A stretch of 64,000 nucleotides of DNA. Origin: an uncultured virus (IMG/VR IMGVR_UViG_3300037504_000379). Its lineage: Duplodnaviria; Heunggongvirae; Uroviricota; Caudoviricetes; Crassvirales. Shown here one piece after another: positions 4,193-60,073 of this stretch. The notes below the pieces were generated by a model. That model worked only from the letters and a program-made list of their open reading frames with translations, made no database searches and was not told where the DNA came from. The stretch is from IMG/VR virus record IMGVR_UViG_3300037504_000379; one strand, written 5' to 3'. Made by a program: the position numbers and the translations under genes. Numbering within the stretch: the first letter of the stretch is position 1; each line of letters opens with the position of its first letter.

Positions 4193-4564
4193 TCAAAAAG
4201 GGAGATCATCCTCTTCGTCAGGCATTTGTGGACTACTCTGCTGCTGACCTCCATTAACATCCTTATCCTGATGCTTCATATTAATATACTTAGCAGAAGT
4301 AAACCATCCACCATTACTGCCTTCATTACTTACTACATCAAAAGAAACTTCCACGTTATCCCCTACAGAAAAATTCTGTATAATATAATTCCAACGCTTA
4401 TCAAAGTTTTCCTTTTTAGAGAACACTTCCGTGGCTAGCTTTTTAGTAAAATACTTGTCCTTAGCCTTCTCCGTCCACTCAATAACTACTTGTCCTTTTT
4501 TGTACTGACCCTTTATTTCTTGTGGATCAACAATCTGAGCAATCTTTCCTTTTTGATTTTGCAT
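4193..4564 (-). CDS. DUF3127-family SSB-like protein
   Basis: GDNVEVSFDV..E..GGWFTS and acidic tail DDLPF. Confidence 0.8.
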   Translation of the reverse strand: MQNQKGKIAQIVDPQEIKGQYKKGQVVIEWTEKAKDKYFTKKLATEVFSKKENFDKRWNYIIQNFSVGDNVEVSFDVVSNEGSNGGWFTSAKYINMKHQDKDVNGGQQQSSPQMPDEEDDLPF

Positions 4565-4604
4565 AATTTATTCATTTACTGATTTTAAAATTTATAATTA
4601 CTTC

Positions 4605-5180
4605 GCTAACAATGCATAAACAGAATTAAAACTCTGTTTATACGGATGTTATGGCACAAGCTACTGCAAGTAACCAAGTGCCTTCGCTTTTTCCTGAATA
4701 GCTTTCATATCACTTTCAGGGTAGCCCCAGTGTGGGCAGTATAATCCACCGTATCCATTATTGTGGTTTGTGTATTCACCAGTCTTTATATATTCGATAA
4801 AATCTTTTACCAATGCCCACATTGTCCCGCCATGATGCCATCCTTTTGGTGGGTAACCGTTTTTTGTATGCAAGTACATTTTTGTTTTATTATATTCATT
4901 ATGCATGTAAAGCCCACCCGCTTTCTGGAAGATGTAAGCCATATCTGCGTCTTTTTTGTACAGGAAAAACTCCCGCCCACGTAGGGCGATTTCCTTTATT
5001 ATTTCATTTACTATACTGATTCTACCTTCTTTAGTGTCGCCAGTGCCTAACATCGCATCATACGGCATGGCCTTGGTTTCTACTTGTTTGTCACTTTCGT
5101 TTTTCATATCTAATGGTATTTACTGTTTGATAATTTCGTTCTTTGTATTCGGCCACGACCGCATATGCGTAGCCGTTAGC
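4605..5180 (-). mobile_element. hairpin-bounded gene cassette, locus B
   Basis: Minus strand: GCTAACGG hairpin, GTTAGGCAC [ORF] GTGCCATAAC, short hairpin, GTTAGC; terminal hairpin nearly identical to locus C. Confidence 0.8.
4661..5107 (-). CDS. cassette cargo, hypothetical protein
   Basis: 148-aa ORF starting inside the hairpin loop; HGGT and WGY motifs. Confidence 0.75.
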   Translation of the reverse strand: MKNESDKQVETKAMPYDAMLGTGDTKEGRISIVNEIIKEIALRGREFFLYKKDADMAYIFQKAGGLYMHNEYNKTKMYLHTKNGYPPKGWHHGGTMWALVKDFIEYIKTGEYTNHNNGYGGLYCPHWGYPESDMKAIQEKAKALGYLQ

Positions 5181-5328
5181 TCATTTACTTCACTATAAAA
5201 TCCCTTGCTATTCATATTTAAATCTTTTTAAAATAAGCCCCTGCCATTTTACTGACAGAGACTTAAACTCATTCGCTATTGTTTAACATGTCAAAAATAC
5301 AAAAACTTTCCGACAATAACAAATATTT

Positions 5329-40351: not shown

Positions 40352-40770
40352 GCTAACGGCTACTTATATGAGTAGTAGCCGATTTGAAATGCGAAACTTT
40401 AAAATAAATATAAATGTTAAACCGAGTGATAAGCCCTAATAATTGCACTACAACGGCTATTACTTATATAAATTGTTGTAGTGCGTTTTTTATATGAAAA
40501 CTTACAAATGGCACACACCAGAGGCACACTCTGATAATACCGAAACAATGAACGACTATTTAGATAACCACCTACCCGAATGTTTTAAGCCGATATTCCA
40601 AGATGGGACTTACGCTGAAATATGCAATAAAAACACAGGACAGATATTTGCAGTACACGCCTCTGGTGACGGTGATTTCTGCAACCACAAAGTAGAATTT
40701 GAGTTTATTCACTAAATGCACTACAACATCCGTATAAACAGAGTTTTAATTCTGTTTATATATTGTTAGC
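40352..40770 (+). mobile_element. hairpin-bounded gene cassette, locus C
   Basis: GCTAACGG 17-bp-arm hairpin, GTTGTAGTGC [ORF] GCACTACAAC, short hairpin, GTTAGC. Confidence 0.85.
40494..40715 (+). CDS. cassette cargo, hypothetical protein
   Basis: 73-aa ORF exactly filling the space between the inverted repeats. Confidence 0.75.
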   Translation: MKTYKWHTPEAHSDNTETMNDYLDNHLPECFKPIFQDGTYAEICNKNTGQIFAVHASGDGDFCNHKVEFEFIH

Positions 40771-41294: not shown

Positions 41295-41370
41295 GGGGTA
41301 TGTAGCTCAATTGGCTTAGAGCACCAGGTTGTGGTTCTGGAGGGTGCGGGTTCGAGTCCCGTCATACTCA
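41295..41370 (+). tRNA. tRNA-His (GTG)
   Basis: Cloverleaf: GGGTATG/CATACTC acceptor stem, TAGCTCAATTGG D-arm, CCAGG-TTGTGGT-TCTGG anticodon arm, GGTTCGAGTCC T-arm; G-1 present; no encoded CCA. Confidence 0.9.
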
Positions 41371-41393
41371 CAAACTTTTAAAAATAAGTTATT

Positions 41394-41943: not shown

Positions 41944-42939
41944 ATGGCTAAAAAGAATACTTCCACAAAAGGAGAAAATCTTCAGAAGGCAATAGATAAT
42001 CTCAACAAAACTTATGGTCAGGGAACAATAATAAAGTTAGGGGATGCTCCGGTGAGCGACATCCCCTCTATTGATTCTGGTAGTATTGCGTTGAACCAGG
42101 CATTAGGTGTTGGTGGTTATCCAAGGGGGAGGGTTGTAGAAATTTATGGTGCTGAATCGGCTGGAAAAACAACATTAGCCTTACATGCCATAGCACAGGT
42201 ACAGAAAAATGGAGGCAGGGCTGTAATCATTGATGCGGAACATGCATTGGATACAGAATATGCAAAAAAACTCGGTGTTAATGTTGGTGAACTATTTATT
42301 AGTCAGCCTAGCGATGGTGAGAAGGCATTGGAGATAGCAGATCAATTGGTGCGTTCTGGTGAAATTGATATAGTTGTCATTGATAGTGTAGCAGCATTAA
42401 TTCCTAAAGCTGAATTAGAGGGAGAGATGGGTGACTCTCGCCTTGGGTTACAAGCTCGATTAATGTCACAAGCTATGAGAAAATTGTCTGGAAGCATAAG
42501 CAAAACGAATACGTGCTGCATGTTTATTAATCAACTTAGGGAAAAAATAGGCGTTATGTTCGGGAGTAACGAGACCACAACAGGCGGAAATGCCCTTAAG
42601 TTTTATGCATCAGTACGACTTGATATAAGAAGAATTGGTCAGATAAAGAATGGCGAACAGGTAGTGGGAAACAGTACAAGAGTGAAGGTGGTGAAGAACA
42701 AGGTTGCTCCTCCTTTTAGGAAGGCTGAATTTGATATTATGTATGGAGAAGGAATAAGTAGGGCAGCAGAGTTGATTGATTTGGGAGTGCAACATGGAGT
42801 GATTAAGCAGAGTGGCTCTTGGTATTCTTATGGAGAAACCAAACTTGGTCAGGGGAAGGAGACTGTTCGCCTTTTGTTTAAAGATAATGAGGAGTTAGCT
42901 GAGGAGATTGAAAAGAAAATATTGGACAAAATGAGCTAA
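41944..42939 (+). CDS. recA: recombinase RecA
   Basis: [47 protein letters not shown]. Confidence 0.98.
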
Positions 42940-43568
42940 CGGACAGCAATATGAAACGTGTGGAATTTAGCACTAACTTTACTATGAAAAACAACAGTAA
43001 TAATTAAATATTTTGAGCGTGGGATATATTAGTAAAAAACAAAGAGAAGAAATTAAGCAAAAGTATGATGGGCTTTGTGCTTATTCAGGAACGCCACTTG
43101 AGGATGATTGGCAGGTTGACCATGTAAAGCCACTTGTTAGAAATTGGTATGATGGCACTTCAATGTTTCCAGATGCTCATTGTGATGAAAACCTGATACC
43201 ATGCCAAAAGATAATAAACCACTACAAGGGTTCATTGGACTTGGAAACATTTAGAAACTGGTTTTTAGGTGGATTGCACGAGCGAATGGATAAGCCAAAG
43301 AATCCGAGAACCGAAAAATCAAAACGCAAAAAAGAATACTTGCAAAAAGTAGCTTCTTATTTTGGCATAACTCCAACAAAGCCCTTTAACGGAACTTTCT
43401 ATTTTGAGAGCGTGGGAAAAGAAAAAATTTAATTATGGTGAATTTAGCACAAACGATACTACGAAGCACAGCACTAAGCATGTTTTATATTGCATGTTGT
43501 AGTGTCGTTTTAATGCACTACAACGCTTGTGTAAACAGTCGTTTTAATGCTGTTTACACTGTGTTAGC
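42935..43568 (+). mobile_element. hairpin-bounded cassette locus D (cargo in loop plus empty cassette)
   Basis: GCTAACGGACA-GCAATATGAAACGTG [HNH gene] CATGTTTTATATTGC-AT-GTTGTAGTG-TCGTTTTAATG-CACTACAAC, short hairpin, GTTAGC. Confidence 0.85.
43013..43432 (+). CDS. HNH endonuclease (cassette cargo)
   Basis: CAYSG...WQVDHVKP...NLIPC...NHYKG; start codon uncertain (TTG). Confidence 0.8.
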   Translation: MSVGYISKKQREEIKQKYDGLCAYSGTPLEDDWQVDHVKPLVRNWYDGTSMFPDAHCDENLIPCQKIINHYKGSLDLETFRNWFLGGLHERMDKPKNPRTEKSKRKKEYLQKVASYFGITPTKPFNGTFYFESVGKEKI

Positions 43569-43592
43569 GAATTATAACTTAAAATATATTGT

Positions 43593-44390
43593 ATGAGAGA
43601 AAAAGGAGATAGATATAATGAGGGAAAATTAAGGCTTGATCTTATTACTCCACAAATGATGAAAGGGCTTGGGAGAGTTCTTACACACGGGACACGCAAA
43701 TACAGTGATAGAAATTGGGAGATCGGGTTGGAGTGGACGGGTGTCGCGGCTTCCCTTAAAAGACATCTATTAGCATTTGAGGAAGGAGAAGATTATGATA
43801 GTGAATCAGGACTTTTACACATAGAACATGTGTTGGCTAATGCAGGATTTTTGGCTACATATTATGAAACAAGACCAGAATATGACGATCGCATTAAAAG
43901 ACGATTTAAAATAGCTCTGGATATAGATGGTGTACTAGCAGATTTTAAAGGAGCTTATTGTAAGAGACATAACATACAACCAAAAAATAATCATTGGCAT
44001 TTTACCTATCTATGGAAGCAGGAGGACGGGTTGTTTGAAGATAAAGATTTTTGGACCAATAAGATACAACCGTTAGTTGATGGAACTAACTTATCAATAG
44101 AGCCTGTATGTTATGTAACTTCCAGGAGATGTTCTGTAGAATGGACGAAAGAATGGCTTGAAAAGCACGGATTCCCTTGTGAACCTGTTTATACTAATCA
44201 AGCCAGCAAAGTAGAGGTGTTGAAGGAGATGTTTGAAAGAGGAGAGGTTGACATCTTTGTGGACGATGCATATAAACATTTTGTGGAATTAAATAACGCA
44301 GGAATCCCTACGTATTTATTTGACCGTCCTTATAACAGGAAGTATGATGTAGGGTATAAAAGGATTTATGATTTAAGAGAACTAGCATGA
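43593..44390 (+). CDS. dATP/dGTP diphosphohydrolase (DUF5664) fused to a HAD 5'-nucleotidase
   Basis: GKLRLDL, G.RKY..RNW, D.ESGLLH..H; then DIDGVLAD, VTSR, FVDD, PYN. Confidence 0.8.
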   Translation: MREKGDRYNEGKLRLDLITPQMMKGLGRVLTHGTRKYSDRNWEIGLEWTGVAASLKRHLLAFEEGEDYDSESGLLHIEHVLANAGFLATYYETRPEYDDRIKRRFKIALDIDGVLADFKGAYCKRHNIQPKNNHWHFTYLWKQEDGLFEDKDFWTNKIQPLVDGTNLSIEPVCYVTSRRCSVEWTKEWLEKHGFPCEPVYTNQASKVEVLKEMFERGEVDIFVDDAYKHFVELNNAGIPTYLFDRPYNRKYDVGYKRIYDLRELA

Positions 44391-44635
44391 AATCAAAGGA
44401 TAGGAAAATAGCAGAGCTGTTTTATTATAAGCTTAAAGAATATTCTTCAACAGGGAAAGACCTAACGCTTACAGAGATGGCGGGATTTAGGAGATGGATG
44501 ATTGACTATTTGAGGTCACATAAAGGGGATAGAAATATAGTTATGAAGGGCGAGGGTAAAGATAAAATAGAGTCATTTGTGGACGCCTACATAAAGAGTA
44601 GTGGTTTACCCCTTCGACCAGATAAAAAGAGCTAA
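44387..44635 (+). CDS. hypothetical protein
   Basis: ORF in operon. Confidence 0.65.
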   Translation: MKSKDRKIAELFYYKLKEYSSTGKDLTLTEMAGFRRWMIDYLRSHKGDRNIVMKGEGKDKIESFVDAYIKSSGLPLRPDKKS

Positions 44636-44646
44636 AAATTGAGCAT

Positions 44647-44937
44647 ATGGATAATTATAGGACAGAAAAATTAAAGCAATATCTTGTAGGATTAGGAGTG
44701 CAGTACAAAGATGTTGATGCTGTAATAAGTAATTATACGAGAGATATTATGATGGACTCGTACAACAAGGGATTCAGCAGGTGCAAACGTATTAACCAGG
44801 CGTGTAGAATATTTAATCGTAATTTGGCGATTAATGATTTTGAGGAATTTTATAATCGCTGGGTAAATACTGTTTCGATAGATATGCTGCATGAGTTTCA
44901 GAATATGTATTATGATAACCTTCCCATTATAAGTTAA
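44647..44937 (+). CDS. hypothetical protein
   Basis: ORF in operon. Confidence 0.65.
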   Translation: MDNYRTEKLKQYLVGLGVQYKDVDAVISNYTRDIMMDSYNKGFSRCKRINQACRIFNRNLAINDFEEFYNRWVNTVSIDMLHEFQNMYYDNLPIIS

Positions 44938-44952
44938 ATTAAAATTAAGTGT

Positions 44953-46125
44953 ATGGATAAATTAACACCTGAAAAGATAAAGCAGGCAAAAAAACTGTTT
45001 GAAAAAAATCCTGGTATAGGGAGATATAAGTTAAAGGATGAACTTGACGTAAGTGAGATGACAGCTAGGATTTTGGCTTTTGCCTTAAATAATCCTGATC
45101 TTATGTCTGAAGATACAGATATGGCTATTAAATTCCGCAAAAAAGAAGTGGAGCTTAGGCAGGTAAAGTCTAATTACAGGAAGCTGCTAGATAGATACGA
45201 TGAAAAAGAACAGCAGAACGATATACTTCTTGGCATTCAGCCAGAGGATGACATTTATCCTGAAATAAAGGAGGTGACTGATGGCAGTAAAGGAAGTACC
45301 ATTGCGATAGCGGTACATAGTGATGTTCATGCTGAAGAAAAGGTGGAACGAGATGTTGTCCTTGGGGTGAATGAATATAATCCTGATATTTGTAAGGCGA
45401 GAGAGGAATTGTTTTTTCAAGACCTCCTTAAAATTGTAAAGCATCACAGGAAAAACTATAAGATAGACACTCTTGTGCTTGGTCTTCTTGGGGACATGAT
45501 AAGTGGTTATATTCACGAAGACCTGCAAGAGAATAACTTTATGTCTCCCACTGAGGCAGTAATGTTTATAAAAGAATTACTTGTTAGTGGTATTAAGTTT
45601 TTGGCAGATAACGGAGATTTTAAGAAGATTGTTATTCCTTGTGCTAAAGGAAATCATGGAAGGACGACAAAGAAAAAAAGGTTTTCTACTGCTTATAAGA
45701 ACTCATATGAATGGATGATGTATCATGATATGAAGCAAACATTTAAGTCGTTTGGCGGATATGAGCATGTAGAATTTATTATTCCTAAAAGTGAGTTTAC
45801 CTACGTTAATTCATTTGATAAGAGCCTGCTTTTTTCTCATGGAGATCATTTTGGTTTTGCAGGGGGTGTTGGTGGTTTTCAGGTTCCTTTGAGGAGATGG
45901 GCTTTAAATCAGCAGATGGTACAGCACTTTGATATGGCTTTTATTGGTCACTGGCATCATGTCATAAACCCCACAGAGAATGTATGGGTTAATGGTAGTG
46001 TTGTAGGTCATACGCCTTATGCTTCTGGTCATAGTATTCAACCTACTACTCCGGCACAGTTATTAGTGTTACAGCATCAGAAGTATGGCTTTATAGCACA
46101 TAATAAGATAGTGTTGAATCGCTAA
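44953..46125 (+). CDS. calcineurin-like metallophosphoesterase with N-terminal HTH/coiled coil
   Basis: SDVH, LGDMISG, GNHGR, HGD, GHWH. Confidence 0.85.
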   Translation: MDKLTPEKIKQAKKLFEKNPGIGRYKLKDELDVSEMTARILAFALNNPDLMSEDTDMAIKFRKKEVELRQVKSNYRKLLDRYDEKEQQNDILLGIQPEDDIYPEIKEVTDGSKGSTIAIAVHSDVHAEEKVERDVVLGVNEYNPDICKAREELFFQDLLKIVKHHRKNYKIDTLVLGLLGDMISGYIHEDLQENNFMSPTEAVMFIKELLVSGIKFLADNGDFKKIVIPCAKGNHGRTTKKKRFSTAYKNSYEWMMYHDMKQTFKSFGGYEHVEFIIPKSEFTYVNSFDKSLLFSHGDHFGFAGGVGGFQVPLRRWALNQQMVQHFDMAFIGHWHHVINPTENVWVNGSVVGHTPYASGHSIQPTTPAQLLVLQHQKYGFIAHNKIVLNR

Positions 46126-46265
46126 CGGACAGCGGTATGATGCGGGGCTTTGGATGTGTGTCGGCCTTGTGCGGCACTGCATTATGACCGCATGTTAGCT
46201 GTCTGGGCGGTCAAGTTGGTACACCGCTGATTAAAAGTACCAACGTAGTAATTTATTTTTTAGGG

Positions 46266-46931
46266 ATGGCAAAAATAGAACTTTTAAATTTATACGCTGG
46301 ACTTGGTGGTAATGTCAAGAAATTGGATAGAAACAAATACAATATTACATCAGTTGAGATTAATCCTAAGATTGCAAAATTTTATCAGGACAACTACCCC
46401 CAGGATAAAGTGATTGTTGGCGATGCTCACGAATACTTAATTAAACACTATAACGAGTATCGCTTTATCTGGAGTTCAATTAATTGTCCTACCCATTCGA
46501 GAGCTAGGTATTGGGCCTCTAAAGGAGGAAAGTATGAACCCGAATATCCAGACATGGGTTTGTACCAGGAAATTATTTTTCTTAAACATTTTTTTAATGG
46601 TGATTGGGTTGTGGAGAATGTAAAGCCATATTATGAGCCACTTATCAAGCCAACAATTGAAATGGATAGACATGTTTTTTGGTCAAATTTCACAATCACC
46701 CCTTTCCAGGTTGATAGTAATTATGTTTTTTCAGGAAATGATATGAAACGAGTTTCCGAAATGCTTGGTATTGAAATAAACAAGTATTCATTTGGAATTA
46801 GAAAAGATAAGCTTATTCGTAATTGCGTTAACCCTAACCTGGGTCTTCACATCCTTAACTGCTTTGAAAAAGCAGAAGCGGGCGGGCAAAAAATAAATTA
46901 CGGGCTATTTGCACAGGATTCTATTAAATAA
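46266..46931 (+). CDS. DNA cytosine-5 methyltransferase-like protein (cassette cargo)
   Basis: LNLYAGLGG, WSSINCPTHS (PC motif variant), VVENV, RH.FWSNF. Confidence 0.8.
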   Translation: MAKIELLNLYAGLGGNVKKLDRNKYNITSVEINPKIAKFYQDNYPQDKVIVGDAHEYLIKHYNEYRFIWSSINCPTHSRARYWASKGGKYEPEYPDMGLYQEIIFLKHFFNGDWVVENVKPYYEPLIKPTIEMDRHVFWSNFTITPFQVDSNYVFSGNDMKRVSEMLGIEINKYSFGIRKDKLIRNCVNPNLGLHILNCFEKAEAGGQKINYGLFAQDSIK

Positions 46932-47042
46932 ACGGTCGTAGCCTTGCAGCTAACGGAAAGCTATATGCACATCGTAGCGATAGCGGAGTTGTGTATATAG
47001 CATGTTGGCACACGTTAAATTTAAAACCAAATACTAAACTAT

Positions 47043-47333
47043 ATGGATAAACAATATTTAATAAATCAAGACACTGCAGAATACAACCACGAACTTTTAA
47101 TAGAATGTGGGTGGGAATCTGAACATGAGAAAAATCATATTTACTCATGGGAAGAATATTCTAAAAGTTGGTATATTCAAGACCAAGACGGAAGTGGATA
47201 TGAGGTAAAGATTTCTCTTAGACAACATGAAAACTATGCGCTGCTTTATGTAAATGGACAGTGGGTAGGGAGAGCACTTTATTTAAGTGATGCTGAATTA
47301 GTAGTCAATGCTATAAAAACAGCTTGCACTTAA
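47043..47333 (+). CDS. cassette cargo, hypothetical protein
   Basis: 96-aa ORF between GTTGGCACAC and GTGTGCCTAAC. Confidence 0.75.
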   Translation: MDKQYLINQDTAEYNHELLIECGWESEHEKNHIYSWEEYSKSWYIQDQDGSGYEVKISLRQHENYALLYVNGQWVGRALYLSDAELVVNAIKTACT

Positions 47334-47430
47334 TGTGTGCCTAACGGACAGCAATATGAAACGTGCGACAAATACGCAGGAACGATAATACGAAGCACCA
47401 CAGTAATAATTAAATATTTTTTTTGAAGGG

Positions 47431-48276
47431 ATGGAAATAAACAAAAATTATAATGAATCAAATCTTGAAACAATGGCAAGAATGCCTGATTGTTTTGTGG
47501 ACTTAACTGTAACTTCTCCACCTTACGATGGATTAAGAACATACAACGGTTATTCTTTTCCATTTGAGGATATTGCAAAAGAACTTTATAGGATAACTAA
47601 AGAAGGTGGTGTAGTGGTATGGGTAATTGGTGATGCAACAACCGATGGAAGTGAAAGTGGCACAAGTTTTAGACAGGCTTTATTTTTTCAATCTCTTGGT
47701 TTCTTTATACACGATACAATGATTTATGAAAAAAATGGTTCTGCTTATCCCGCTAATGATAAAAGCAATAGATATAGCCAAGTTTTTGAATATATGTTTG
47801 TGTTTAGTAAAGGGAAACCAAAAACACACAACTTAATAAAAGATAGAAAAAATAGATGGGAAGGAAGTAAGACTTTCGGCAACCAAAGTAACAGAAAACA
47901 AAATGGTATTTTAGAAAAAAAAGGAAGTAGGGAAACTCCTGAATTTGGTTATAGATATAATATTTGGAAATACAATAATGGTTATGGTTATAGTACAAAA
48001 GATGAAATAGCATTTAAACATCCTGCAATATTTCCTGAAAAATTAGCATACGACCATATAAAAACCTGGACAAACGAAGGTAATTTGGTTTACGATTGCT
48101 TTATGGGAAGTGGAACAACGGCAAAGGCAGCTATAAGTGCAAATAGAAATTGGATAGGAAGCGAAATAAGTGAAGAATACTGCCAAATAATAGAACAAAG
48201 GCTTGAACCATTACGGAACAATCTTTTTTCTAATTGCTTTGAAAAAGCAAAAGCGGGCGGGCAAAAAAATATTTAA
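47431..48276 (+). CDS. DNA N4-C/N6-A methyltransferase, beta class (cassette cargo)
   Basis: VTSPPY, HPAIFP, DCFMGSGTT, GSEIS. Confidence 0.92.
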   Translation: MEINKNYNESNLETMARMPDCFVDLTVTSPPYDGLRTYNGYSFPFEDIAKELYRITKEGGVVVWVIGDATTDGSESGTSFRQALFFQSLGFFIHDTMIYEKNGSAYPANDKSNRYSQVFEYMFVFSKGKPKTHNLIKDRKNRWEGSKTFGNQSNRKQNGILEKKGSRETPEFGYRYNIWKYNNGYGYSTKDEIAFKHPAIFPEKLAYDHIKTWTNEGNLVYDCFMGSGTTAKAAISANRNWIGSEISEEYCQIIEQRLEPLRNNLFSNCFEKAKAGGQKNI

Positions 48277-48444
48277 TTATGGTCAAACTTGTAGAAACAT
48301 TGAAACGAAGCACTACACTAAGCATGTTTTATATTGCATGTTGTAGTGTCGTTTTAATGCACTACAACGAAGGCATAAACAACGTTTTAATGTTGTTTAT
48401 GGCATGTTAGCGTCTCCAAAGAAGAAAACCCTAAAACTCTATCT

Positions 48445-50603: not shown

Positions 50604-50853
50604 GATGAGTAATTTAATTTTACATACCGACCCACTATTGTTGATACTTATAATAGCATTGATTAATTCCATAATGGATAAAATACGGTTTCGGTATGAG
50701 CTAACGGTGTTTTCAAGGTTGGGAGCTGATTGGTGGTTTGATCCATCTGTAAGCTGGAAAAACAAACATAGGTAGAAGCCTACATGGTTATTTAAAACTG
50801 TACTTGTGTGGGTGACAGATCTATGGCATTTGTTACAATTTATAATAGAATGA
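50604..50853 (+). pseudogene. disrupted phage membrane-protein gene, 5' part
   Basis: MSNLIL...IMDKIRFRY...WWFDPSVSWKNKHR*KPTWLFKTVLVWVTDLWHLLQFI; in-frame TAG; a plausible C-terminal remnant WLFWGIVFEINYSIKF follows the IS at 52058. Confidence 0.55.
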
Positions 50854-52057
50854 AGCAAATACACAAGTCATATAAGTATCGAATTTACCCAACAAAGGAA
50901 CAAGAATCCTTGTTGAGTAAACACTTTGGGCATTGTAGATTTGTGTTTAATAGGTTCTTGAATGAACGTAAAGAGAAATATCTAAATGAAAAAACTTCTC
51001 TTAACTATTACGATAATGCAAGAACTTTAACCGAATTAAAAAAAGATGAAGAGTTTGTTTGGTTAAAAGAAGTTAATTCTCAATCATTACAAGCGTCAAT
51101 TAGGAATTTAGATATTGCATACAAAAACTTTTTTAACAAGCAAAATAAATTCCCAAGATTCAAATCAAAGTACGATAGACAGAGTTTTAAAGTACCACAA
51201 AACGTGTTAGTTGAAAATGGTAAACTTGTAATACCTAAATTCAAAGAAGGAATTAAGTTAAACCTTCACAGAGAAATGGAAGGTAGCCCTTTGTTTGCTA
51301 CCATATCTAAGTCAACAACTGGTAAATATTATGTTTCAATTACTTGTGAAGTTGAACATAAGTCATTTAAAAAGACTGGTAAATCGGTTGGGGTAGATAC
51401 TGGTATTAAAGAACTTGCTATACTTTCAGATGGGAGTAGTTATGAAAATATTAAATCACTTAAAACCAAATTAAAGAAACTCAAATACGAGCAAAGACAG
51501 CTTTCTAAAAAACAAAAAGGAAGTCAGTCAAGAAATAAACAGAAAATAAAACTTGCTTTAGTACACGAACAAATCACAAATATTAGAAAAGATTACCTAC
51601 ACAAAATATCAACTGAAATTGTCAAAAACCACGACATAATATCAGTTGAGGACTTGGCGGTTAAGAATATAATGAAAAATCATTGTTTAGCACAAGCAAT
51701 GAGTGATGTTTCGTTGGGTGCATTTTACACAATGCTTGAATATAAATCTAACTGGAATGATAGGCAATTTGTAAAAATTGATAGATTCTTTCCAAGTAGC
51801 AAGACCTGTTCAGGTTGTGGTTGGATAAAACAAGATTTAACTCTTTCAACGAGAGAATGGACTTGTGAATCTTGTGGTGAAATCCATGATAGAGATGTGA
51901 ATGCAGCAAAAAATATATTAAAGCAAGGTATAAACATATTGTCTGGTTGTGGGATGCAGTCGGACACCAAACAAAAACGGGATAAGGCGTTACCATTAGG
52001 TGAGTCTGCGACCCCCGAAGCCCAACCTATCGGCTCTGCCGTGGGTGGGTAGTTCAC
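50840..52057 (+). mobile_element. tnpB-only IS200/IS605 element
   Basis: tnpB followed by right end GAAGCCCAAC...GTGGGTGGGTAGTTCAC; no tnpA; left end not identifiable. Confidence 0.75.
50850..52052 (+). CDS. tnpB: RNA-guided nuclease TnpB (IS200/IS605 family)
   Basis: YKYRIYPT, GVDTG (RuvC-I), VEDL (RuvC-II), SSKTCSGCG/CESCG zinc finger, DRDVNAAKNI. Confidence 0.95.
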   Translation: MKQIHKSYKYRIYPTKEQESLLSKHFGHCRFVFNRFLNERKEKYLNEKTSLNYYDNARTLTELKKDEEFVWLKEVNSQSLQASIRNLDIAYKNFFNKQNKFPRFKSKYDRQSFKVPQNVLVENGKLVIPKFKEGIKLNLHREMEGSPLFATISKSTTGKYYVSITCEVEHKSFKKTGKSVGVDTGIKELAILSDGSSYENIKSLKTKLKKLKYEQRQLSKKQKGSQSRNKQKIKLALVHEQITNIRKDYLHKISTEIVKNHDIISVEDLAVKNIMKNHCLAQAMSDVSLGAFYTMLEYKSNWNDRQFVKIDRFFPSSKTCSGCGWIKQDLTLSTREWTCESCGEIHDRDVNAAKNILKQGINILSGCGMQSDTKQKRDKALPLGESATPEAQPIGSAVGG

Positions 52058-52355: not shown

Positions 52356-52931
52356 ATGCCACACAAAAAACAACACATCACCTCAGACTTTATGTCTTGG
52401 GAAGAAAGTAAACGAGTTATTAACTTGCTTTATCGGGACGAAGATTATTGGTATTGTCTTCTTTTTACTATCGCCACACATTTTGGGCTTCGCATTAGTG
52501 ATGTCAAAAAATTAACTTGGGATGATCTTATTCGCAAAGAGAAAGTAGTGCTTAATGAGAAGAAAACTGGTAAGAAGAAGATTATTGAGACACCGGAAAA
52601 CATTAAAGATTTTGTACTCACCCTTTATGGAAAAATAAAACCAAAGGGTAAATATATTGTCAGTGTTAAACACACGCAGACAATAAATCAAAAGCTAAAG
52701 AGACTTAAAGAGAAGTATAACATAGACATAGGTAATTTTTCTACCCACACATTTCGCAAGACGTTTGGAAGGCATTATTGGGAGAAGAATGGCAGGAGTG
52801 AATACGCCCTGTTTATGCTTATGCAACTTTTTAATCACAGTAGCTTGGATACAACCAAGGTGTACCTTGGAATCAGGCAGGATGAATTTAATCAGATATA
52901 TAGTAATATAGCAGAAGAGGCAATTGTATGA
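52356..52931 (+). CDS. tyrosine recombinase (catalytic domain only)
   Basis: GLRISD, EKKTGK, HTFRK, FNHSS, TKVYLG = R-K-HxxR-H-Y. Confidence 0.92.
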   Translation: MPHKKQHITSDFMSWEESKRVINLLYRDEDYWYCLLFTIATHFGLRISDVKKLTWDDLIRKEKVVLNEKKTGKKKIIETPENIKDFVLTLYGKIKPKGKYIVSVKHTQTINQKLKRLKEKYNIDIGNFSTHTFRKTFGRHYWEKNGRSEYALFMLMQLFNHSSLDTTKVYLGIRQDEFNQIYSNIAEEAIV

Positions 52932-53332
52932 AAGGAATTATTAAGCAGAACATTCGTTTAGCACCGACAAGGTTTTTTCTTGACGTGGTGCTTGGAGATT
53001 ACGAGTTTTTTAAGGAAGTGCTGAAGAGTGATAAATATTATGAAGAAGGGGCTTTCGACTTTGAGGAAGTAGAGATAAGTAAAAGTAGTGAAGGAGCTAT
53101 TTGGACTTTAATAGATAAGGTGAGCGAGGAAGATGACAAAAACGATGTTACCAAGTTTCTGATGTGGGTAAAGGATAAGGATGACGTTATCACTATAAGT
53201 CATGAGGCAATACATATAACGTGGGAGATAAATCGTTATACGAATATTAGGATAGCTGAAGATGCGCAGGAGTTTCAGTGTTATATGCATGATTATATTA
53301 TGGAACAAGTGCTTAGTTTGTCTAAGGGCTAA
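52928..53332 (+). CDS. hypothetical protein with HExxH motif
   Basis: ISHEAIH...QEFQCY. Confidence 0.65.
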   Translation: MKGIIKQNIRLAPTRFFLDVVLGDYEFFKEVLKSDKYYEEGAFDFEEVEISKSSEGAIWTLIDKVSEEDDKNDVTKFLMWVKDKDDVITISHEAIHITWEINRYTNIRIAEDAQEFQCYMHDYIMEQVLSLSKG

Positions 53333-53776
53333 CGGAAAGCTATATGCGCCTGTTTTAATGGCGTATATAGCATGTTGGCGCAAGTACGGTTTTATAAACA
53401 AAAAAATATTGATATGAAAAAAATAAATCAAAAAAAATTAAGCCGCAATGCCTATAAATATAATAGGCGTAAGTTTAAAAAAACAACAAAAAACTTTATT
53501 AAGGAATTAAAGAAACATTTGAAAAAGAGAAGTAAAAACGGTGATACTTCCTTTAGTGCCGAAATTGATGCTGATAAAATTTATGCAGAATCATACATGT
53601 TAGCTGTTAGATGGTTAAAACGTTATACAGATTTAGATATTACAATCTATGAAAATTCTGATGTAAATGTTCATGGAAAAAAATATGTAAATAGTATGAA
53701 CGTACACATATATTGGTAGTATTTGCGCCTAACGTTGGTATAAAATGCGTTTTAATGCATTTTATAGTATGTTAGC
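53328..53776 (+). mobile_element. hairpin-bounded gene cassette, locus F
   Basis: GCTAAC-GGAAA-GCTATATGCGCC/GGCGTATATAGC-AT-GTTGGCGCAAGTAC [ORF] GTATTTGCGCCTAAC, short CGTTTTAATG hairpin, GTTAGC. Confidence 0.85.
53414..53719 (+). CDS. cassette cargo, basic hypothetical protein
   Basis: MKKINQKKLSRNAYKY...; the upstream ATG in the ORF track is part of the repeat. Confidence 0.7.
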   Translation: MKKINQKKLSRNAYKYNRRKFKKTTKNFIKELKKHLKKRSKNGDTSFSAEIDADKIYAESYMLAVRWLKRYTDLDITIYENSDVNVHGKKYVNSMNVHIYW

Positions 53777-53841
53777 ATTATTTAATTTCCTTTACATAAC
53801 AAAGCTGCTTGGTTAAGAAAATGATAAAAAACTTAAATAAG

Positions 53842-58263: not shown

Positions 58264-58459
58264 CCTCTATTCAACTGAAACAACAAAGGATGTTAAACGT
58301 ATAATGTTTAACGTTGCTGAGGCAGAATACCGGACTAAACTTGTTCTTTTAAAATATAGAATTGAGCCGGATAAATTTAAACGAGCTGCTTCTCTTTTGT
58401 GGAGACTTGTATTAAATTATTATAGTCCGCAAAAGGTAAAACCAACGAATTTATTTTAA
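58256..58459 (+). CDS. small hypothetical protein (paralog at 59887-60042)
   Basis: Lies within the 214-bp duplication. Confidence 0.6.
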   Translation: MYNLYSTETTKDVKRIMFNVAEAEYRTKLVLLKYRIEPDKFKRAASLLWRLVLNYYSPQKVKPTNLF

Positions 58460-58490
58460 ACACTTAAAACCCATTATTATGAAAACACAA
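58277..58490 (+). repeat. 214-bp imperfect direct repeat, copy 1
   Basis: Matches 59860-60073; the 3' ~70 bp are identical. Confidence 0.9.
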
Positions 58491-59268: not shown

Positions 59269-59383
59269 CCTTGTTGCTAACGGCACACAGCTATGAGTAG
59301 TGCGGGAATTACAGCACTGACTTTGATACGAGTATTAACCGCTCCCGCTTCTTTTTTAAGCGTGGGCATAAATATAAATAAAG

Positions 59384-59716
59384 ATGAAAAAACAGATTAC
59401 AGTAAAAGAAAGAAACAGTTGGGAAGGCGAAACATTTAATTATGTAATATATGTTATTCCCGAAGAAGAAAACCAAATTCGTGAAAAATGCGAGAAATAT
59501 GGCGATGGTAGTTTAACGGTGCAAGAAACCAACTACACCGATGAAGAAATAAAAAAGATGAATGCAGCATCCAGCAACTTATATATGGACTTTATAGCAC
59601 CGTATGAATTAAAGGGAAACGCACTAAAAAAATGGGAAGAATTTGGTGATTGCTTTTACAAAGGTGTTGGTTTAACAAAATTAAAAGCGTTGGAAGAAAA
59701 AGAAGCACAGCACTAA
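59384..59716 (+). CDS. cassette cargo in hairpin loop, hypothetical protein
   Basis: 110-aa ORF. Confidence 0.7.
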   Translation: MKKQITVKERNSWEGETFNYVIYVIPEEENQIREKCEKYGDGSLTVQETNYTDEEIKKMNAASSNLYMDFIAPYELKGNALKKWEEFGDCFYKGVGLTKLKALEEKEAQH

Positions 59717-59859
59717 CCTTACTACGAGCTACGACACCCGCATTACTCATAGCTGGTGTTGTAGCATCGTTTTAATGTACTACAACATATGAATAAAGAA
59801 AGGTGTTTTTAAAATTGCGGTAAAATGAAACAGAAAATTATTGACAGAATAGAAGAAAC

Positions 59860-60073
59860 GAAACAACAAAGGACGTTAAACGTATAATGTTTAATGTTGC
59901 TGAAGCTGAATTTAACAGTAAGCTTGTTCTTTTAAAATATAGAATTCAACCGGATAAATTTAACAGAGCCGCCTCTCTTTTATGGAAACTTATATTTAAT
60001 TATTATAGTCCGCAAAAGGTAAAACCAACGAATTTATTTTAAACACTTAAAACCCATTATTATGAAAACACAA
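59860..60073 (+). repeat. 214-bp imperfect direct repeat, copy 2
   Basis: Matches 58277-58490. Confidence 0.9.

Follow-up and report, generated by a model that had tools for sequence, protein, structure and literature searches.

How can one and the same hairpin hold two unrelated genes in its loop? The question is raised by cassettes D and E3 in a 64,000-nt stretch of phage DNA (the window, bases 1-64000 of the 76,618-bp virus record IMGVR_UViG_3300037504_000379, here G000, which has direct terminal repeats), where the same scaffold encloses an HNH endonuclease gene and an N4/N6 DNA methyltransferase gene, respectively. The original prediction was a second exchange point inside the loop, at an inner inverted repeat with G-rich words, that would allow the cargo to be swapped. 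We propose that D and E3 are copies of one cassette, that the gene in the loop is clamped for a likely tyrosine recombinase and that the cargo is replaced by homology, a joint reading that we are about equally inclined to accept and to doubt. Coordinates are those of the window, and features lie on its plus strand unless stated otherwise.

D and E3 follow one layout, which begins with AAC, a 16-bp outer stem, an A-rich segment, a 15-18-bp inner repeat (the clamp), a short G-rich word (G-word) and the open reading frame (ORF), and continues with a G-word, the inner repeat, an A-rich segment, the outer stem, GTT and a 29-nt GTT...AAC hairpin. Cassette D, from AAC to the next AAC (42938-43521), consists of a filled hairpin (42938-43498) and this minimal spacer, and relatives depart just after the AACG at its start. 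Its outer left arm (42938-42961; AAC core 42938-42940, stem 42946-42961) is followed by the first A-rich loop segment (42962-42999), the left clamp arm (43000-43014), the left G-word (43015-43023) with a likely GTG start at 43019, and the HNH endonuclease gene (43019-43432, in an ORF of 43013-43432), which matches phrog_2118 (E 2.8e-22) and no Pfam family at 1e-3. The right G-word (43408-43416) lies within the reading frame and is followed by the right clamp arm (43422-43436), which pairs with the left one with one mismatch. The remainder (43437-43498) holds the second loop segment (to 43477), the outer right arm (43478-43493) and the GTT core (43496-43498), with the gene-less 29-nt spacer hairpin at 43496-43524.

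Cassette E3 (47343-48365, AAC to the next AAC) is likewise a filled hairpin (47343-48342) with a minimal spacer. The outer left arm (stem 47351-47366) and first loop segment occupy 47343-47405, the left clamp arm (47406-47424) and a G-word with ATG (start 47431) together occupy 47406-47434, and the methyltransferase gene extends over 47431-48276 (PF01555, E 2.4e-47). At 48235-48262 a 6-bp mini-hairpin with a GAA loop, of which the related loci L006, L045, L090 and L013 carry compensatory variants, precedes the right G-word; the right clamp arm (48263-48280), second loop segment, outer right arm (48322-48337) and GTT core complete the hairpin (48263-48342), and the gene-less 29-nt spacer hairpin lies at 48340-48368. 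In both cassettes the start codon (GTG 43019, ATG 47431) comes from the left G-word and a TAA inside the right clamp arm, where both genes have their stop codon, ends the ORF. Ordinary phage genes fill 43593-46125, between D and E.

The words predicted to be common to the two loci are indeed there, the left arm at 42936 and 47341, the inner left word at 42995 and 47401, the inner right word at 43427 and 48271 and the 54-nt right arm at 43472 and 48316, and all four occur nowhere else in the 76,618-bp genome. As they are exact repeats of 25 and 54 nt, the likeness of D and E3 is beyond chance. The predicted G-rich words were found as well: GAGCGTGGG at 43015 and 43408, GAAGGG at 47425 (a common 6-mer with many further copies), GCGGGCGGG at 48253 with a second copy at 46878, and AAGCGTGGG at 59358 and AAGCGTTGG at 59685 inside GCTTCTTTTT (59347) and AAAAAGAAGC (59697). 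The matches to phrog_2118 in D and PF01555 in E3 bear out that the two cargoes are unrelated.

Many more genes are carried in this way. The left arm as query picked up 14 viral, 47 genome and 38 metagenome loci, of which 13, 3 and 38 were kept as real, L014 among the viral and 44 of the genome loci being chance matches. With G000 added, the kept loci comprise 56 left arms, of which 38 are paired with a right arm that matches, and they contain 29 distinct loops with cargo in 22 clusters; the 18 left arms without a partner mostly lie at contig ends, and more than 1400 nt was available in five. All but one of the 29 loops have an inner repeat, in about seven sequence types, and the repeats that bound the cargo measure 12-19 bp. 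Scans with the inner arms (110 loci, from which those without a matching right arm were removed, and a further 9) left 33 modules, in 24 clusters, once L074 and L086, two chance rows of 35, were discarded, and the combined set holds 61 modules in 42 cargo clusters. Pfam matched 10 of 40 cargo representatives, namely four methyltransferase families, two PAPS-reductase domains, DUF5131, DUF7448, an ExoX-like protein and Tad3. With 22 clusters in 29 loops and 24 clusters in 33 modules, the predicted nesting of a gene within an inner repeat within a hairpin, and the swapping of its cargo, are real and common, and the catalogue for which the original prediction called showed no single gene tied to the scaffold. 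Cargo, clamp and outer arms are found in many combinations, and a module that one genome has in a loop may stand between hairpins in a second genome (L083 versus L015/L217, L059 versus L042, L210 versus L046). The inner repeat and G-words thus frame genes not just in loops; the window itself (46248-46901) has a body-type unit between hairpins (46193-46954), in which a clamp (46248-46261 / 46888-46901) and G-words enclose a C5 methyltransferase gene (46266-46931).

What, then, does the inner repeat do? Gene-less hairpins, the loops of which are A-rich, are quantised in length from AAC to GTT, measuring 44-47, 82-92 (mode 86) or 109-125 nt (mode 123), i.e. in steps of about 37 nt, and 16 of 62 clusters (75% identity) are exactly 123 nt, a size at which the empty loops stay even as they vary widely in sequence. 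A blind search gave 45 filled hairpins, in which a clamp was counted when the inner repeat scored at least 12. Thirty-nine are clamped, and the sequence outside the clamp sums to 114-128 nt (mode 119) in 38 of these (23/23 with this scaffold, 15/16 with other outer arms), a rule that spans 23 clamp sequences and more than 10 arm families. The chance rate, obtained by pairing with foreign flanks, was 149 of 465 such sums, with weaker stems, and the clamp arms matched their own partner with a median of 15.5 versus 8.0 for foreign ones. Aligned to the 123-nt profile, the first segment of the filled scaffold copies ends at column 54-63 and the second begins at column 59-65, the second fitting best at zero shift and the first weakly, at +2. 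Since a duplex spans roughly 3-4 single-stranded bases, 119 nt together with the clamp stem comes to about 123. As the size sums match the empty hairpins, the inner repeat likely works as a clamp, and the keeping of size is likely the best account of it. A 4-bp AATT target duplication turning 119 into 123 was rejected as a general explanation, clamps with other bases also giving 119.

Among 19 copies of the scaffold conservation begins at AAC and stops at the next AAC, and the 29-nt spacer follows 28 of 37 filled hairpins, precedes 1 of 38 and follows none of 74 gene-less hairpins of 86 or 123 nt. By this conservation and these counts a cassette is a hairpin plus a body, a gene in the loop being paired with an empty body. 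In 70 of 76 sites the better fold is that of the gene's sense strand, on which the conserved AACG lies, and the site appears to be attC-like with a polarity opposite to that of integrons. According to passages of Bouvier et al. (2009, PMC2727003), it is the bottom strand of integron sites that recombines, in R', where AAC mostly precedes G, and deleting the extrahelical bases moves top-strand recombination to R''. As far as those passages describe attC, the phage sites resemble it in being palindromic, with inverted AAC and GTT cores, an unpaired spacer, a paired inner stem and a variable terminal loop, in their little sequence conservation, in having AAC then G on the likely reactive strand and in that empty 86- and 123-nt sites lie within its 57-142 nt. 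Unlike attC as described there, their loops are quantised, may hold a whole gene (D, 561 nt, and E3, 1000 nt, exceed the attC range) and have an inner clamp that likely restores size, and the heptamer consensus (RYYYAAC, GTTRRRY) is mostly absent (YYYAAC in 9/76, GTTRRRY in 6/76 sites). The integron rule of bottom strand, crossover in R' and a site downstream of the gene would not hold either, in that the sense strand folds better and units run from one sense-strand AAC to the next with the hairpin ahead of the body. The system is real and works like an integron array, and several marks of attC membership are missing. In D and E3 the stems show unbroken pairing, G-T wobbles included, and no extrahelical base, and an asymmetric spacer adjoins AAC.

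Is there a second exchange site within the loop? The original prediction implies a second dedicated recombinase that recognizes the G-word at the tip of the clamp fold, where it would insert bare ORFs or swap them, a possibility that we entertain only tentatively and on the whole doubt. The G-word has a consensus, G-S-G-N-N-G-G, in the same orientation at both ends, and of the 42 clusters 30 have it to the left and 29 to the right of the cargo, which speaks for such an enzyme, as does its occurrence on both sides or neither in 38 of 42 (by a stricter pattern, both 28, right only 4, neither 10). With the word absent from both sides in ten clusters and the left and right 7-mers identical in 2 of 27, however, a single dedicated exchange point at the G-words is not supported; agreement of the first three bases (17/27, p 0.017) drops to p 0.11 after collapsing one subfamily. 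Modules without the word still favor ATGG and could be decayed. The word may also resemble relaxase nick sites, a likeness given no weight here. G000, moreover, has one tyrosine recombinase and no Y1 transposase. That the flanking 7-mers are identical in only 2 of 27 clusters, and that the genome has only TnpB and no Y1 transposase, also speaks against insertion in the manner of an insertion sequence (IS) or a miniature inverted-repeat transposable element, which would call for a target duplication and a transposase. The left G-word usually supplies the start codon, and in the 24 clusters that have the D/E clamp the ORF runs to the TAA of the right arm in 14, terminates before it in 10 and continues beyond it in none; overall, cargo starts fit the frame in 35 and stops in 36 of 42 clusters. 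From this pattern of start codons and TAA it follows that the frame gives start and stop, and that in-frame products are kept.

The junctions themselves argue against one fixed second crossover, as they fall in at least four places, including inside genes. Unrelated cargoes mostly share 0-20 nt inside each clamp arm, and in a subgroup the shared stretch on the right extends to 28-37 nt and takes in the mini-hairpin with compensatory stems. That sharing mostly ends within about 20 nt of the clamp would suit a second recombinase, as would run X1, in which the frame of the C5 methyltransferase carries another gene that departs exactly at the inner clamp edge 46261, in a copy not in G000. Other junctions, however, fall where arm meets loop (L221, L222), within the right arm at a depth of 28-37 nt, or within genes at a depth of 100-115 nt (L039, L183): the identity of E to L039 is 92-100% over the last ~115 nt and about 50% in the middle, and L183 has the left flank of D and an HNH gene that diverges in its last quarter. 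Of 12 HNH relatives, two at 91-92% keep the clamp and G-words under other arms (L221 matched, L222 chimeric), one at 90% (L223) lacks the frame and has a coding end that resembles a G-word, and neither feature is present in the nine at 56-72%. Twenty-five of 80 loci with methyltransferase relatives were inspected, and seven of these 25 lie in four other clamp types, always with G-words, which are other ones than here. From the HNH, methyltransferase and X1 comparisons we conclude that the G-words accompany the gene in some cases and the frame in others. The HNH tree has no strongly supported branch and does not resolve the order of frame gain and loss. In L223 the frameless HNH gene, at 1201-1629, lies directly before a terminase-like gene (judged from its translation) in a phage of higher G+C content.

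A dedicated site should also be met empty, and none was found in the viral contigs, genome contigs or other retrieved DNA searched: the empty D/E clamp site had no match in viral contigs, empty inner sites were absent from genome contigs and gave one chance match in 713 kb of retrieved DNA, none of 68 left-arm matches (duplicates included) had a right arm within 200 nt, and no empty scaffold with the D/E outer arms was found. Two matches to a second clamp type were rejected as unrelated hairpins, and a joint in run X2 (47432 -> 48231) was not counted, its insert being unknown and one side 29 letters. Of the second exchange point, therefore, nesting and swapping stand and the dedicated site is unproven, for want of an empty inner site and with junctions in several places. 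Replacement in which the 50-60 nt of flank shared on either side act as guide accounts both for the spread of the junctions and for the lack of empty sites, and fits better than a dedicated second site.

In the mechanism that we propose, the sense strand of the gene would fold and the inner repeat would clamp the gene out of the folded single strand, so that the hairpin keeps its standard size, which a protein may sense; a likely tyrosine recombinase would act on the site with strand exchange at the 5' AAC. RecA-type or annealing-type replacement of the cargo would take place across the flanks, and the G-word, as the conserved inner edge, may seed first capture by microhomology, for which A/T runs are an alternative, selection retaining in-frame products. 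Several observations weigh against this proposal. No recombinase was tied to the hairpin sites in this analysis. Homology cannot explain the first entry of a new ORF, and G-words are far from random, their background in G000 being 0/77 gene starts and 4/77 gene ends, with G after ATG in 32/35 versus 30/81. Most outer arms remain matched, whereas free crossing should give more chimeras, and the mosaicism of D's HNH gene versus L223 is not significant (p 0.14). With DNA parameters both the outer stem and the clamp are predicted for D, whereas the best fold of E3 has the clamp and lacks the outer stem, and the folding z-scores of the whole loci are only -1.4 and -1.2. Six of the 45 filled hairpins have no clamp scoring at least 12 (three long-armed without loop segments, one that lost an arm and two with weaker clamps, one of which sums to 122), and the size rule may partly be descent, the loci sharing ancestry. 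The breaks at AAC cores in three places in contigs of runs X2-X4 (42941 -> 43527 in X2 and X4; 46123 -> 48366 in X4, with four letters fitting both sides, and 46128 -> 48365 in X3; 40358 -> 40725 in X2 and X4) speak for the AAC-to-AAC unit, but have sides of 21-36 letters at 90% likeness and unknown inserts, and show where relatives depart, not clean deletions.

A bolder version of the second-enzyme idea, which we regard as improbable, would be a two-tier, integron-like system of inverted polarity in Bacteroidota phages, with an AAC-cassette recombinase that gauges steps of about 37 nt and a second enzyme that captures ORFs at the G-word, the clamp supplying start and stop. It is quite unlikely, in our judgment, that common descent with fold-back repair, template switching perfecting repeats and deleting loops, produced the clamp with no selected function. 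All loci were reached through two seed motifs, left and right linker lengths each vary little and no empty copy with these arms allows direct comparison, all of which speaks for such a history; the size rule, however, holds over the many clamp sequences and arm families given above, divergent empty loops are still 123 nt, and the linkers of the unit at 59279 are 68+54, not 56+63, with a similar sum. Least probable is that the clamp acts in RNA, where the 5' leader, once paired with the 3' end, would limit the translation or stability of risky cargo (nucleases, methyltransferases), for although G-T pairs favor the sense strand and the start codon adjoins the left arm, compensatory stems closed by three-base GNA loops are more in keeping with DNA, the clamp of D is absent from the best fold with RNA parameters, an Rfam search of the window matched tRNAs only, and the AAC-to-AAC unit, the 29-nt spacer rule and the size classes are left unexplained.

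The clamped cassettes that we propose have partial counterparts among known systems. Passages of Qi et al. (2023, PMC9892861) describe CALINs (clusters of attC sites lacking integron integrases) in virulent phages, including Polaribacter phage P12002L, which resemble ours in lining up attC-like sites with no integron integrase, in belonging to a Bacteroidota phage and in carrying methyltransferase cargo; the main text of that paper does not contain the words 'nested', 'loop' or 'variable terminal', these passages have no gene in a loop, clamp or G-word, and the phage CALINs listed in its supplements may comprise sites of this kind. The cargo swap has its closest analogue in the PeSL cassettes of T4-type phages (Arbiol et al. 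2010, PMC2839356), short repeated stem-loop modules through which recombination inserts, deletes and replaces accessory genes. Unlike PeSL, which are units of promoter and terminator between genes, the gene here lies inside a long-range hairpin with attC-type cores. No published description of genes clamped in attC-like loops, or of quantised loops, was found in a search outside which most subscription literature lay.

Further units of this kind occur in G000 and elsewhere. A third copy of the scaffold, beyond the window at G000 65463-65962, has a compensatory change in the outer stem, a different clamp and an unrelated 112-aa gene. A filled hairpin of another arm family (59279-59760) has an 11-bp clamp (59347-59357 / 59696-59706), a 110-aa ORF and a flank sum of 122, and a gene-less hairpin of the standard 123 nt lies at 40355-40477. 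The loop cargo of L129 matches Tad3, an anti-Thoeris protein (PF25185, E 1e-25), and L200 belongs to the same cluster. The 29-nt spacer hairpins at 43496-43524, 48340-48368 and 59758-59786 have a constant loop and many covarying arm variants; both spacer ends are kept by several gene-filled bodies (L196, L210, L007), which hints at an insertion point in the spacer loop. The cultured Cellulophaga phage phi39:1 (L316) has at ~690-990 a small gene in a hairpin loop without an inner clamp, followed by the 29-nt spacer and then a short hairpin. Minus-strand hairpin units stand amid minus-strand genes (1583-1710, 4599-4650, 5162-5196), orientation thus following gene sense, and a 214-nt direct repeat (90%; 58277-58490 and 59860-60073) brackets a hairpin array.

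Genes for a crAss-type muzzle domain, portal, terminase, RecA, SSB (4193-4564, a candidate for the size-sensing protein) and primase mark G000 as a crAss-like phage, and from this identity and the hosts of related elements its host is probably a member of the Bacteroidota. The metagenome runs containing most of the window are tidal-flat samples, X1 may be the source, and no RNA dataset is among the listed runs containing its DNA. The phage recA gene (41944-42939; PF00154, E 4.5e-131) lies directly upstream of D, which makes its product a candidate for homology-guided exchange; an AAA_24 match, considered as a separate recombination protein, was rejected as being RecA, and ERF, RecT and Y1 transposase were not found in G000. 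The only tyrosine recombinase found (52356-52931, 191 aa) has its catalytic residues and scores 26 bits versus a cut-off of 265 for TIGR02249 (integron integrase); it had two weak relatives among 64 candidates, and no connection to hairpin arrays emerged. The gene stands one gene upstream of a hairpin array (sites 53331 and 53731, within 52356-53780). An IS200/IS605 TnpB above cut-off lies at 50808-52052. Relatives show joints at both ends of the tRNA-His gene (41296-41371), and a second ARAGORN call at 42376 lies inside recA and has no Rfam match.

Integron biology has yet to settle how gene cassettes arise in the first place. In the system described here one short frame equips at least 42 unrelated families of cargo, including DNA methyltransferases, PAPS-reductase-like proteins and Tad3, with a start codon, a stop codon and a clamp, and is thus a concrete substrate for testing cassette capture. 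From the fixed loop sizes one would expect a protein that gauges single-stranded DNA, and genes in loops together with the opposite strand polarity likely escape attC models built on short sites. Were the two-tier system true, it would be a working cassette-building machine.

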